This document shows positions 14,363 through 19,101 of a stretch of 32,000 nucleotides of DNA, piece by piece. This DNA is from Candidatus Profftella armatura (GTDB lineage: Bacteria; Pseudomonadota; Gammaproteobacteria; Burkholderiales; Burkholderiaceae). The notes under the pieces were generated by a model that saw only the letters and a program-made list of their open reading frames with translations, had not been told where the DNA came from and ran no database searches. The position numbers were made by a program, and so were the translations under genes. Within the stretch, counting starts at the first letter, position 1; every line of letters starts with the position of its first letter. Location of the stretch: the NCBI RefSeq assembly GCF_000441555.1, contig NC_021885.1:150001-182000 (forward strand), given 5' to 3'.

Positions 14363-15544
14363 ATGAAACTTATGCGTTATAATCATATTCCCAAAATTAA
14401 TATAATATCTTATATTTTATTTTTTCTCTCTTTTTTTACAGTATTTTTTTCTGGAAAAATTGTCAGTAAAGAAATAAAAATTGGAACATCAATACCATTA
14501 ACTGGACAATTTTCTAATATTGGTAAATATTATCACGATGCTTATAAATTTACTATTGATAAAATAAATGAAAGTGGAGGTGTGAAAGTTAATAATTCAT
14601 TTAAAAAATTATCTCTTAAGTTATATGATAATCAATCAAATATCGGTATTAATAAGTGTCAATATATTAAACTAATCACAGAAGATAATATTAATTTTTT
14701 ATTAGGACCTTTTTTAAATAATTTTATACTTAATAATTCTTTTATTTCCGAAAAATACAAAACTATTATTATGCAAAGTTGTGGAATTTCAAACCAAATT
14801 TTATCAAATAATTTTAAATATGTTTTTGGTTTATTTATACCAGCTAAAAATTATTTTCAAGATACTATAGAAATTTTAAAAAAAATGAAAATAAAAAATG
14901 AAAAAATTGTGTTTCTTTATGTTAATGATGCATTTCATTCTGCTATTGCAAATGGAGTATCTTTAATATTTAAAAAATTTAATTTAAATAAAATTATAAA
15001 TAAAAATTATTCATTAAATACTATTGATTTCACCTCATTAATAGCACAAATAAAAAATATAAACGCAAAAATAATATTTTTTTCTGGATATGAAACAAAT
15101 ATTATTAATTTTATACGACAAATTAAAATTTTTAAAATAAAACCTATGTTTTTTTCATTGACTTCTGATTTATTAAATAAAAATATTAGGAATTTACTAA
15201 AAAATGAAAATAATTATACTTATGGTATAACTCCCTGGTTGCCTAATTTTAATTTTAAAGATCGTTGGTTTAGTAATGCTAAAAATTTTTCAAATGAATA
15301 TAAAAAAAAATTTGGATATTATCCTGATTATCATTCAATTTTTGCTGTAATTGATATTGAATCATTAGTATATGCAATAGAAAAATCAAATGATCTTAAT
15401 CCATTAAAAGTAAAAAAACAGTTAAAAAAATTAAATTTTAATAGCATATATGGTAAAATTACTTTTAATAAAAATAATAAAATGATAATATCACAAAATG
15501 TTATTAAAATTCAAAATAATAAATTAGTTCCAGCTAATAGTTAA
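14363..15544 (+). CDS. ABC transporter periplasmic substrate-binding protein, Leu/Ile/Val-binding (type I PBP, LivJ/K-like) family
   Basis: 393 aa. N-terminal hydrophobic signal/anchor (ISYILFFLSFFTVFF). IKIGTSIPLTGQFSNIGKYYHDAYKFTIDKINESGGV is typical of this family. First gene of a livKHMGF-ordered operon. Confidence 0.8.
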   Translation: MKLMRYNHIPKINIISYILFFLSFFTVFFSGKIVSKEIKIGTSIPLTGQFSNIGKYYHDAYKFTIDKINESGGVKVNNSFKKLSLKLYDNQSNIGINKCQYIKLITEDNINFLLGPFLNNFILNNSFISEKYKTIIMQSCGISNQILSNNFKYVFGLFIPAKNYFQDTIEILKKMKIKNEKIVFLYVNDAFHSAIANGVSLIFKKFNLNKIINKNYSLNTIDFTSLIAQIKNINAKIIFFSGYETNIINFIRQIKIFKIKPMFFSLTSDLLNKNIRNLLKNENNYTYGITPWLPNFNFKDRWFSNAKNFSNEYKKKFGYYPDYHSIFAVIDIESLVYAIEKSNDLNPLKVKKQLKKLNFNSIYGKITFNKNNKMIISQNVIKIQNNKLVPANS

Positions 15545-15575
15545 ATATTTTAATGATTTTTAAAATCTAAAAATA

Positions 15576-16439
15576 ATGAATTTACTAATACAAATTTTTA
15601 TTAATGGTATTTTACAAGGTGGTTTTTATATCATAATAGCGTTAGGATTGGCACTAACTTGGGGAATACTTAATATTCCTAATCTTACCCATGGGACATT
15701 TATTGTATTAGGTGGTTATATAACATGGTATTTATATAATAATTTTAATATAGATCCATTATTAAATTTACCAATTGTAGCATTAATAATGTTTATATTA
15801 GGTTATATTATACAACGTTTATTAATTAATTTTGTTATAAAAGCACCAAAATTTAATACTCTTTTGCTTACTTTTGGATTAGATATGTTGTTAACCAACA
15901 TAATACAATTAATATTTTTAACAAATTCTTATATTATTAATCCGATTTATGCAAGTAAAAGTATAACATTTGGAGATTTTTTATTTCCTGAAATTAAATT
16001 AATAGCATTTTTCATAGGAATTTTTTTAGCAATTGGCATGTGGTTTTTCTTATTATATACTAAATTAGGATATTCAATTCGAGCCACAAGTCAGAACAAA
16101 ATAATTGTACGTTTTTGCGGGATAAATCCAGGACATTTATATGCGATAACTTTTGCTATTAGCTCAGCTATTTCTGGAATTGCTGGCGCATTTTACGGAA
16201 TGATATTTCAAATTAATCCATATATTGGTCCTATGCTTACGACTAAATCATTTATAATTTCTAGTATTGGAGGATTAAATAATCCAATTAATATAATTTT
16301 TGGGGCAATATTATTAGGTATTGTGGAATCTTTAACTACATTATACATTGGACCAACTTTTACTGATTTATTTAGTTTTAGTATTTTAGTTTTAATATTT
16401 TTTTTTCGTCCAAATGGATTAATGGGAAAAGTTAGATGA
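15576..16439 (+). CDS. livH: Branched-chain amino acid (HAAT family) ABC transporter permease, LivH-like
   Basis: 287 aa multi-pass hydrophobic protein. The LivH-like N-terminus (ILQGGFYIIIALGLALTWGILNIPNLTHG) and operon position support the call. Confidence 0.8.
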   Translation: MNLLIQIFINGILQGGFYIIIALGLALTWGILNIPNLTHGTFIVLGGYITWYLYNNFNIDPLLNLPIVALIMFILGYIIQRLLINFVIKAPKFNTLLLTFGLDMLLTNIIQLIFLTNSYIINPIYASKSITFGDFLFPEIKLIAFFIGIFLAIGMWFFLLYTKLGYSIRATSQNKIIVRFCGINPGHLYAITFAISSAISGIAGAFYGMIFQINPYIGPMLTTKSFIISSIGGLNNPINIIFGAILLGIVESLTTLYIGPTFTDLFSFSILVLIFFFRPNGLMGKVR

Positions 16440-17392
16440 AAAATTTAAAATTATTTAAATATTCTATTTACGTATTAATATTGATATTATTAATTTTTTT
16501 ACCTTCATACGCTCCAGATGTATTAATGCAATTTAGTATTAATGTTTTATTATCATCTGTTTTGGCGCAAAGCTGGAATATTATTGGAGGTTATACTAAT
16601 TATGTTTCTTTTGGTAATTCAGTATTTTATGGTCTTGGTAATTATTGTACAGCAATAACAATAAAAAGATTTAATTTTTCTTTTGGTATTAGTTTAATTT
16701 TTAGCATATTATTAGTTATATTTTTTGTAATATTTATTAGAAAATTTATTTTTCGTTTAAAAGGACAGTATTTTGCAATTACAACTTTAGCTATTTCTCA
16801 AATAACAATGTTGATTTTATCTAAAGTAAAATTTACTGGAAAAAATATTGGATTAATAATTCCAGAATTTAATAATGATACTTTTTTTTATGAAATATAT
16901 TTATTATTATTAATAATTATAACATTAAATATTTATTTTTTAACTAAAAGTAAATTTATATTAGGATTAATTGCGATTCGTGAAAACGAAGAAAATGCAA
17001 TAGCATTAGGTATTAATACTAATTTTTATAAAACATTAATTCTAATATTTTCTGGTACATTTGTTGCATTAGCAGGGAGTGTTCATGCTTATTGGGTTTC
17101 TTTTGTAACCCCAGATAGTGCTTTTGATACAAGTCTTAATATAAAAATGATTCTTATGACAGTTTTAGGTGGTTTAGGAACAATAATTGGTCCAATTATA
17201 GGTTCATTTTTGTTTTTATTTTTATCAGAAATAATGGTTAATAATTTTACTGGTATTGCCAATATATTTCTTGGATTTATAATTATAATTTTAATAATAA
17301 TTATGCCTAATGGTTTTATAAAAATTTTCACTAATTTTCATAAAATTAATAAAAATTACTTTATTAAAAAAATTAAAAAAAATAAATTATGA
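16436..17392 (+). CDS. livM: HAAT family ABC transporter permease, LivM-like
   Basis: 318 aa hydrophobic protein. Has a LGLIAIRENEENAIALGIN motif (LivM-type RENE..A...G). ATGA start/stop overlaps with both neighbouring genes. Confidence 0.8.
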   Translation: MKNLKLFKYSIYVLILILLIFLPSYAPDVLMQFSINVLLSSVLAQSWNIIGGYTNYVSFGNSVFYGLGNYCTAITIKRFNFSFGISLIFSILLVIFFVIFIRKFIFRLKGQYFAITTLAISQITMLILSKVKFTGKNIGLIIPEFNNDTFFYEIYLLLLIIITLNIYFLTKSKFILGLIAIRENEENAIALGINTNFYKTLILIFSGTFVALAGSVHAYWVSFVTPDSAFDTSLNIKMILMTVLGGLGTIIGPIIGSFLFLFLSEIMVNNFTGIANIFLGFIIIILIIIMPNGFIKIFTNFHKINKNYFIKKIKKNKL

Positions 17393-18105
17393 CATCTATT
17401 TTAAAAATTTTTAATGTTACTAAATGTTTGAACAATTTTTTAGTAATTAATAATGTAAATTTTTCATTAAAAAGGGGTGAAATATTAGGAATAACTGGAA
17501 ATAATGAATCTGGTAAAACAATACTTGCACGTATAATTAGTGGATTTATAATACAAGATAAAGGAGATATATTTTTCCAAAAAAAAATAATTAATTCTTT
17601 TTTACCATTTAAACGAGTTAAATTAGGTATTATTCATATATTTCAAAATAAAAATTTATTTAATAATTTATCTGTTTTAGATAATGTAACAATTAGTATA
17701 TTATTTGGATCAAATGATAATATTAATCTTATTTATTCACGTCAAAAAGCATTTGAATATTTAAAATTTGTAGGTTTGCAAAAATTTTTTAATTCCAAAA
17801 TTAATACATTAACTCGGCTTAATAAACAAAAATTGAAATTAGCGAAAGCTTTTGGTGCAAAACCCAAAATAATTTTATTAGATGAAATAATGTCTGGTTT
17901 AAATAAAATTGAAGTTTTAAAATTAGCTAAAATAATTGAAAAAATTCGTAATTTAGATATTAGTATTTTATTTATTGATAAAAATTTCAGTGCTATTAAA
18001 ATTTTAGTGGATCGTTTATTAGTTTTATATCGTGGTAATAAAATAGCAGATGATTTTCCAAAAAAGATATTATCTGATAAAATTTTACTAAATAAATTGA
18101 GTTAA
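17389..18105 (+). CDS. livG: HAAT family ABC transporter ATP-binding protein, LivG-like (divergent signature and H-loop)
   Basis: 238 aa. Walker A GNNESGKT, Q-loop IFQNKNLF, Walker B IILLDE. The signature region reads LTRLNKQK and the H-loop position reads IDKN. Confidence 0.75.
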   Translation: MTSILKIFNVTKCLNNFLVINNVNFSLKRGEILGITGNNESGKTILARIISGFIIQDKGDIFFQKKIINSFLPFKRVKLGIIHIFQNKNLFNNLSVLDNVTISILFGSNDNINLIYSRQKAFEYLKFVGLQKFFNSKINTLTRLNKQKLKLAKAFGAKPKIILLDEIMSGLNKIEVLKLAKIIEKIRNLDISILFIDKNFSAIKILVDRLLVLYRGNKIADDFPKKILSDKILLNKLS

Positions 18106-18109
18106 AAAT

Positions 18110-18799
18110 ATGAAAAATTTAAATAAAAAATATCCAATTTTAGAAATTAAAAATTTATACTTAAAGTATAATAATAAATTAATTTTAAATAAAATAAATT
18201 TAAATTTTTTTTCCGGAGAAATAGTAACTTTAATTGGGAAAACAAATTCTGGAAAAACTACTTTTGCTCATGCAATATATAACATGTTACCATATGCTGG
18301 TAAAATTATTTTTAATAAAAATAAAATATATAAATTAACATATGACAAAATTTTTAAACTAGGATTAGTCTATGTTATGCAAAAAAATAGATTATTTGAA
18401 CAAATAACAGTAGAAGAAAATTTATTAATAGGAGCTTATTTAAGAACTAATAAACTTTTAATTATGAGGGATTTAAATAAAATATATTCAATATTTCCTA
18501 AATTATTTGAACAGCGCATGCAATTAGCTATTAATTTATCCAATGGACAAAAAAAAATATGCTCAATAGCACGCGCATTAATGGCTTCACCAAAATTTAT
18601 AATTATTGATGAAATTAGCTTTGGAATTACAAATAAAATAATAAATAAAATAATAAAAATATTAATAGAAATACAAAAATTTGGTACAACTATTTTTTTG
18701 ATAGAAAAAAATATACAATTAATTATACCTATTTCTGATCATATTTATATTATAAAAAAAGGAAGTATTATAAAATCACAAAATTATAGAAATAACTAA
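18110..18799 (+). CDS. livF: HAAT family ABC transporter ATP-binding protein, LivF-like
   Basis: 229 aa. Walker A GKTNSGKT, signature LSNGQ, Walker B FIIIDE, and LIEKN at the LivF VEQN position. Confidence 0.75.
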   Translation: MKNLNKKYPILEIKNLYLKYNNKLILNKINLNFFSGEIVTLIGKTNSGKTTFAHAIYNMLPYAGKIIFNKNKIYKLTYDKIFKLGLVYVMQKNRLFEQITVEENLLIGAYLRTNKLLIMRDLNKIYSIFPKLFEQRMQLAINLSNGQKKICSIARALMASPKFIIIDEISFGITNKIINKIIKILIEIQKFGTTIFLIEKNIQLIIPISDHIYIIKKGSIIKSQNYRNN

Positions 18800-18858: not shown

Positions 18859-19101
18859 ATGACAAAAAATAATATTTTTAATGTTATTAAAAAAAACATT
18901 TTAGACACTTTACCCAAAATATCACCACATATAATTTCATATGAAAAAAAATTAGTTGATTTAGGCGCAAATTCTGTAGATAGAATTGAAATTATTATAA
19001 TGTCAATGAAAGATTTAAATATAAAAATTCCATTACTTAATTTTTCTAAAGTATCTACAATTGAAGATTTAATAAATGTATTTTTTGCAAAATTAAATTA
19101 A
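18859..19101 (+). CDS. Free-standing acyl carrier protein (donor ACP of a beta-branching cassette, PedN/AcpK-like)
   Basis: 80 aa. LGANSVDRIEIIM carrier-protein core with the Ser retained. Convergent with the HMG-CoA-synthase-like gene and overlaps it by 4 bp. Confidence 0.8.
   Translation: MTKNNIFNVIKKNILDTLPKISPHIISYEKKLVDLGANSVDRIEIIIMSMKDLNIKIPLLNFSKVSTIEDLINVFFAKLN

Follow-up and report, generated by a model that had tools for sequence, protein, structure and literature searches.

A five-gene binding-protein-dependent ABC importer operon within the diaphorin gene cluster of Candidatus Profftella armatura

Organization of the dipK-G operon

We analyzed a 32,000-nucleotide stretch of the Candidatus Profftella armatura chromosome (hereafter the window; chromosome positions 150001-182000), which is one of two loci carrying the dip polyketide synthase (PKS) genes for diaphorin, and we describe here the five-gene operon dipK-dipG (dipK-G) that lies within it. 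The genome, from the symbiont of the psyllid Diaphorina citri, consists of two contigs of 459,399 and 5,458 bases with a G+C content of 24%. The five co-directional genes encode a binding-protein-dependent ATP-binding cassette (ABC) importer, with one periplasmic substrate-binding protein (SBP), two permeases, and two ATPases (Table 1). DipK matches Peripla_BP_6 (PF13458; 1.8e-37), DipJ and DipI match BPD_transp_2 (1.2e-38 and 1.6e-30, respectively), and DipH and DipG match ABC_tran (8.7e-23 and 8.7e-22). At a G+C content of about 20%, stops make up roughly a tenth of all codons, and chance cannot account for five open frames of 229-393 codons. The importer inside the diaphorin cluster is real and intact, and the coordinates agree with a first-pass annotation made from the sequence alone, which had described five co-directional genes with two ATGA overlaps; both overlaps, dipJ/dipI and dipI/dipH, can be read directly in the sequence.

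The same annotation had placed the operon between two blocks of PKS-associated genes, and both flanks read as claimed. To the left, on the minus strand, are a PfaD-type enoyl reductase (ER), a methyltransferase, a flavin-dependent monooxygenase, and a trans-acyltransferase (trans-AT) PKS of more than 3393 amino acids. To the right are an acyl carrier protein (ACP), a hydroxymethylglutaryl-CoA synthase, a 340-amino-acid open reading frame (ORF), an enoyl-CoA hydratase, a phosphopantetheinyl transferase, and an acyltransferase (AT). Among these neighbors, the supplement of Nakabachi et al. (PMC7643613) lists dipL as a PedB homolog (ER), dipO as a PedH homolog, dipF as an ACP and PedN homolog, dipE as a PedP homolog, dipD as a PedK homolog, and dipA as an acyltransferase.

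Table 1. Features of the dipK-G locus and related loci. Positions are those of the window unless another sequence is given.
Feature	Position	Strand	Description
dipL-dipK divergent intergenic region	14165..14362		dipL (ER) on -, dipK on +; probable promoter region
33-bp tandem duplication	14168-14233		in the dipL-dipK spacer
Conserved spacer block	~14214-14265		about 50 nt, in the dipL-dipK spacer
dipK	14363..15544	+	393 aa; periplasmic SBP, HAAT family; hydrophobic N-terminal signal-like segment
DipK C-terminus	15490-15544		early end relative to free-living orthologs
dipJ	15576..16439	+	287 aa; permease, LivH/UrtB-like (BPD_transp_2)
dipJ/dipI overlap	16436-16439		ATGA
dipI	16436..17392	+	318 aa; permease, LivM/UrtC-like (BPD_transp_2)
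dipI/dipH overlap	17389-17392		ATGA
dipH	17389..18105	+	238 aa; ATPase, LivG-like
dipG	18110..18799	+	229 aa; ATPase, LivF/UrtE-like
dipF	18859..19101	+	80-aa ACP, PedN homolog (name: PMC7643613 supplement)
LysE-type translocator gene	28404-29015	-	
Orphan Dpp-type permease	G000:C1:187440-187976	-	BPD_transp_1
Profftella_Dco operon	Profftella_Dco 167463-171941		PMC7643613 supplementary table S1
Paraherbaspirillum soli operon and cluster	L086:9920-14419 with L095:1334-17095 and L094:2-18705		NZ_JBHSMT010000028.1; free-living Oxalobacteraceae
G021 orthologous operon	L013:6146-16408		same GTDB family as Profftella

Family assignment and characterized relatives

By domain content and gene order, dipK-G is assigned to the HAAT family of ABC importers (TC 3.A.1.4; Liv/Bra/Urt type). 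As judged from PF13458 and from its fold, DipK is a Peripla_BP_6-type periplasmic binding protein of type I; it is followed, in K-H-M-G-F order, by a pair of distinct BPD_transp_2 permeases and a pair of distinct ABC ATPases. The AlphaFold model of DipK (pLDDT 82.9) has the type I fold and was matched by Foldseek to LivK/LivJ/UrtA-type structures with probability 1.00. Modeling of the binding protein, which the first-pass annotation had recommended for comparison of its pocket with Liv, Urt, and Bra homologs, thus established the fold and gave no substrate call, as the matches were generic HAAT binders at 12-19% identity in which amino-acid, urea, and aromatic-acid binders were mixed.

The nearest relatives of the five proteins in NCBIfam are Liv and Urt subunits. 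The Escherichia coli LIV-I system (LivJ/LivK-LivHMGF) shares its architecture, Pfam families, gene order, and type I fold with dipK-G, but a direct sequence search matches DipK to LivK only at an E-value of 5e-8, and all scores are far below the equivalog cut-offs (score/cut-off in bits: SBP 68/477, LivH 86/379, LivM 64/366, LivG 108/362, LivF 134/441). UrtB is the top NCBIfam match of DipJ and UrtE that of DipG, yet every score against the urea transporter is likewise below its cut-off (UrtA 28/493, UrtB 147/250, UrtC 85/296, UrtD 102/304, UrtE 146/286), including that of DipK against UrtA.

A search with a profile of the DipK subfamily retrieved, over its full length and at an E-value of 5e-39, PDB entry 8WCH. 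This protein, SAR11_0655 of Ca. Pelagibacter ubique, is the closest solved and characterized relative of the subfamily, if a distant one, and in PMC11485210 it is described as belonging to a new ABC transporter class and as binding L-pyroglutamate with a Kd below 5 nM. The C-terminal YPMPxW motif of SAR11_0655 is common to the free-living orthologs of DipK and is missing from the Profftella SBP. Whereas SAR11_0655 is partnered with a 5-oxoprolinase (pxpABC), the Profftella genome has no match to PxpA (PF03746), and pyroglutamate would therefore be of doubtful use to Profftella. Since the ligand of this nearest characterized relative is L-pyroglutamate and not a branched-chain amino acid, the published designation of the dip proteins as Liv homologs should not be taken as an assignment of substrate.

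Orthologs in free-living bacteria and origin of the operon

In a scan of one genome per species, the DipK subfamily was found to be encoded at 438 places in free-living Beta- and Alphaproteobacteria, and we examined the layout and neighbors of the best 80 loci. These include loci from Collimonas, Herbaspirillum, Herminiimonas, Paraherbaspirillum, Achromobacter, Candidimonas, Rhodoferax, Polaromonas, Gallionella, Bradyrhizobium, Nitrobacter, and Mesorhizobium. All five genes are present in 70 of the 80, and the order is K-H-M-G-F at every locus whose contig extends far enough, so that the gene order of this HAAT operon in free-living Burkholderiales and Hyphomicrobiales is the same as that of dipK-G. 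Identities to the free-living orthologs are 40-46% for the SBP, 52-58% for DipJ, 43-55% for DipI, and 36-44% and 32-40% for the two ATPases. In a protein search of approximately 5.8 billion clusters, only the two Profftella DipK sequences exceeded 46% identity, followed by a tight group at 35-44%. We found no characterized member of the free-living five-gene operon in the literature.

The neighbors of the free-living operons are variable and mostly housekeeping in nature (e.g. the cytochrome oxidase gene COX1, RF3, a short-chain dehydrogenase/reductase, and GltP), and no flanking gene family recurs at more than 9 of the 80 loci. A substrate could not be read from conserved neighbors for want of a recurrent partner gene, and dip tailoring enzymes stand beside none of the 80 loci. 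An operon found in a genome of the same GTDB family (G021) is the most divergent of the orthologs and lies between LysR-TcuA-TcuB and an MFS transporter. Both TcuA and TcuB, encoded by tricarballylate dehydrogenase genes, score above their equivalog cut-offs, and this HAAT system may have been recruited for a tricarboxylate in that genome. Tricarballylate was considered as a lead to the substrate and set aside as a one-off, as TcuA/TcuB are absent from the surroundings of the other 80 loci.

The six most similar concatenated orthologs all belong to Oxalobacteraceae (Herbaspirillum group), at 46.5-47.8% identity, which lends weak support to vertical descent from a free-living Burkholderiales ancestor as the most likely origin of dipK-G. 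A different origin, in which the operon was not ancestral to Profftella but came in horizontally along with a portion of the PKS island, would be consistent with trees of the five concatenated proteins (LG+G4 on 69 rows and C20 on 28 rows), which do not place Profftella inside Oxalobacteraceae. It would also be consistent with the finding of a close relative in only one of 24 genomes sampled to represent the other genera in this GTDB family, namely the divergent copy in G021. An extreme long branch and biased composition, however, would produce the same poor placement, and the tree program did flag biased composition. A physical association that could favor such a transfer was seen in Paraherbaspirillum soli KACC 12633, where 2 kb separate the orthologous operon from a large trans-AT PKS/nonribosomal peptide synthetase (NRPS) cluster. 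This cluster encodes a 5253-amino-acid PKS with four ketosynthase domains and no in-line AT, a 627-amino-acid tandem AT, and a second ORF of more than 5599 amino acids, but the dip tailoring genes are absent from it and its sole likeness is an AT 44% identical to DipA. One such case among 80 loci is within chance, and, with the highest identities falling in Oxalobacteraceae, we rate joint horizontal transfer as the least probable of the histories weighed here.

Role of dipK-G in the Profftella genome

A Pfam search of the whole 465-kb genome recovered three ABC ATPase domains, two of them in DipH and DipG and the third in an MsbA-like exporter. The operon dipK-G is thus the only ABC importer in the genome with its own ATPases, which bears out the general expectation, voiced in the first-pass annotation, that reduced symbionts keep few transporters. 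The same search gave no match to carriers of the MFS_1, AA_permease_2 (APC), SDF (DAACS), or Na_Ala_symp (AGCS) families. A Dpp-type permease gene is also present as an orphan, with no cognate ATPase in the genome. As dppC is found only in the D. citri lineage (DC) and dppA2 only in the other lineage, Profftella_Dco (PMC7643613), the decay of this second ABC importer seems to be taking a different course in each lineage. A LysE-type translocator gene was identified elsewhere in the window.

According to the published inventory, no genes for amino-acid synthesis are kept except cysDHIN (PMC7643613), and the organism must therefore import amino acids. We identified glyA and metK in the genome, so that glycine for the NRPS module and S-adenosylmethionine (SAM) for methylation could be made from imported serine and methionine. 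The inventory of amino-acid pathways that had been proposed as a check accordingly comes out as almost none, together with these two genes. The same study mentions a putative amino-acid transporter gene that passed from the Profftella lineage to Liberibacter.

The first-pass annotation had offered two readings of the operon, namely an import route serving the polyketide pathway and a housekeeping operon trapped in the cluster by rearrangement. The second is favored by the existence of free-living orthologs, by their lack of dip neighbors, and by the published statement that no ABC transporters were identified in the ped and onn clusters, and pathway-linked import is less supported. On balance, we lean toward the view that dipK-G is a housekeeping importer resident in the genome, that its place in the cluster is incidental, and that amino acids are its most likely class of substrate. 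The gene content, intactness, orthology, uniqueness, motif changes, and mode of selection are observed, whereas the substrate class, the direction of transport, the vertical origin, and the incidental position are inferred. In the mechanism we propose, DipK would bind a small nitrogenous solute, most probably an amino acid or several of them, in the periplasm and dock on a DipJ/DipI heterodimer, and DipH and DipG would power uptake with ATP. Given the published near-absence of amino-acid biosynthesis, the operon would have a general role in amino-acid supply and would feed diaphorin production indirectly, through serine and glycine via GlyA, through conversion of methionine to SAM via MetK, and through the synthesis of very large PKS proteins. 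The dip cluster would have been laid down around the operon, which would then have been retained as the only ABC importer with its own ATPases. As the sole importer of this kind in a genome with no reported amino-acid synthesis, dipK-G is a plausible metabolic lifeline between the host and its defensive symbiont. It may also be a place where the host, the vector of citrus greening, controls how much diaphorin is made.

Several observations weigh against a resident, functioning amino-acid importer. One importer of narrow specificity could not supply 20 amino acids. No DipK-G protein meets an NCBIfam equivalog cut-off, so no substrate is assigned in this way, and the closest characterized relative of DipK binds L-pyroglutamate, which is not a proteinogenic amino acid, and is not LivJ or LivK. 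In both trees the Profftella pair sits on a very long branch (approximately 2-5 changes per site) at a basal polytomy. The accessible portion of the Profftella proteome paper contains nothing on the expression of dipK-G under any name or locus tag. The remaining points concern the state of the sequences themselves. The published dN/dS values of the transporter genes are 1.5-2.5 times the genome mean of 0.076, residues of the two ATPases that are invariant in all 67 free-living orthologs used for motif comparison are replaced, and DipK ends about 18 residues early in both Profftella lineages; with these ATPase residues replaced and the DipK tail lost, transport activity may be weak.

Sequence divergence and selection

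Relative to the free-living operons, which retain canonical ATPase motifs, both Profftella ATPases are altered. In DipH, the Walker A motif reads GNNESGKT as opposed to GPNGAGKT (67 of 67 orthologs), the H-loop EH is changed to DK, and the signature LGGPGRKR is changed to LTRLNKQK. In DipG, the Walker A motif reads GKTNSGKT, the signature SGGEQQ is changed to SNGQKK (LSNGQ), and the H-loop EQ is changed to EK. The replacements common to both ATPases and both lineages are the fourth glycine of Walker A, the H-loop histidine (DipH) or glutamine (DipG), which is lysine in Profftella, and the glycines of the signature. The Walker A Lys-Thr and Walker B Asp-Glu pairs are retained in both proteins, and the altered DipH motifs GNNESGKT and DKNF are identical in DC and Profftella_Dco. 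Among the positions that are near-invariant in free-living orthologs, 53-70% are kept in Profftella.

The missing end of DipK corresponds to a C-terminal YPMPxWxKR tail that is near-invariant in the free-living orthologs and shared with SAR11_0655; the 31 nt that separate dipK from dipJ are too few to encode it. In the pocket region, the free-living consensus GPFaS is GPFLN in DipK and QGGGAS is QSCGIS. In a sequence-only alignment, several DipK positions that align with what we take to be the ligand-contact residues of LivK also appear to be changed.

In the published comparison of the two lineages, dN/dS is 0.193 for dipK, 0.117 for dipJ, 0.134 for dipI, 0.166 for dipH, and 0.195 for dipG, with small p-values, as compared to 0.024 for dipL and 0.033 for dipE (PMC7643613 supplement). 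Our own Nei-Gojobori estimates for the five transporter genes are 0.22-0.44, and of the 19 genes in the window that could be scored, only one other ranks in the top six. As dN/dS is well below 1, selection on dipK-G is relaxed but still purifying.

These data bear on the possibility that the operon is a decaying relic, with open frames and crippled function and with little or no ATP hydrolysis, which survives because decay is slow or because dipF depends on transcription through it. The changes in the Walker A, signature, and H-loop motifs, the incomplete retention of near-invariant positions, the truncation of DipK, the elevated dN/dS values, and the visible decay of the neighboring Dpp system would all be in keeping with such a relic. 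Conversely, all five frames have remained open in two lineages separated by a dS of approximately 0.4 despite the abundance of stop codons at this base composition, and purifying selection persists. The altered motifs are moreover conserved between lineages, and the Walker A Lys-Thr and Walker B Asp-Glu pairs are kept. We therefore regard a relic as unlikely and continue to favor a resident importer under relaxed constraint.

Relationship to the diaphorin genes

All five genes are also intact and identically arranged in Profftella_Dco (chromosome of 469,264 bp; PMC7643613), the only other lineage with the cluster. Conservation of position was a test put forward in the first-pass annotation, and while the layout is indeed the same, the test does not discriminate, because the two genomes are collinear throughout with near-perfect synteny and the shared position of the operon consequently carries little weight.

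The spacers on both sides of the operon offer further possible links to the PKS genes. In the divergent dipL-dipK region, a block of about 50 nt is identical in Profftella_Dco. This region also holds a 33-bp tandem duplication that is specific to DC, is represented by one partial copy in Profftella_Dco, and occurs nowhere else in the genome. The repeat was considered as a shared dip regulatory element and rejected, as it is unique to this spacer and duplicated in DC only. A promoter scan was uninformative in such A+T-rich DNA (73 sites found as compared to 62.7 expected). Downstream, dipF starts 59 nt past the dipG stop on the same strand, with the spacer conserved in Profftella_Dco, and no terminator-like hairpin was found between the two genes, in a scan that is itself uninformative at this base composition. 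It is possible that dipF forms the sixth gene of the dipK-G transcript.

These features would fit an importer that is dedicated to the pathway, regulated jointly with the dip genes, and used to supply one particular building block or the precursor of a cofactor, such as serine or glycine for the NRPS module, methionine as the source of SAM, or some other compound supplied by the host. Such an importer would also be in keeping with the published inclusion of the genes in dipA-T, with the need of the genome for imported amino acids and its possession of glyA and metK, with the changes in the DipK pocket region, which could mean an altered specificity, and with the position kept in both lineages. 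The last of these is not specific, given collinearity genome-wide, nor is the inclusion in dipA-T, as the letters follow gene order along the chromosome and the dip names thus record chromosomal position and not a demonstrated role. The divergent region shared by dipL and dipK contains the conserved block, but its 33-bp repeat is lineage-specific and is not found at other dip promoters, and the free-living orthologs stand alone without dip genes. Elsewhere in the pederin family, the Labrenzia paper states that no ABC transporter was identified in either the ped or the onn cluster, and the lab cluster of Labrenzia sp. PHM005 has three ABC transporters. The transporter genes are also evolving faster than the biosynthetic genes dipL and dipE. 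Taken together, this evidence makes a dedicated importer no more probable than a relic, and we consider it improbable. A stronger form of the idea would make the importer a functional component of the diaphorin pathway, co-transcribed with dipF and tuned to a host-supplied precursor through its altered pocket, lost tail, and lysine H-loops. To this we give slightly less credence again, although, if true, it would represent a housekeeping operon recruited into a symbiont toxin pathway. The resident importer with incidental position remains our preferred reading.

Published annotation of the operon

The operon was already known. Supplementary table S1 of PMC7643613 (see also Nakabachi et al. 2013) names dipK, dipJ, dipI, dipH, and dipG as homologs of LivK/M/H/G/F in both lineages (SSDC_00675-00695 in DC), and the main text counts twenty genes (dipA-T) in the PKS clusters. 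We report nothing categorically new in the existence of these genes. What is added here is the set of free-living orthologs, the uniqueness of the importer in the genome, the kinship with SAR11_0655, and the fast evolution and motif changes; the available main text of PMC7643613 is silent on the function, substrate, and origin of dipK-G and does not analyze its motifs. In the published table, dipJ is listed as the LivM homolog and dipI as the LivH homolog. The COG numbers and the NCBIfam matches indicate the reverse for this part of the window (15576-17392), and the two labels appear, from these matches, to have been swapped.

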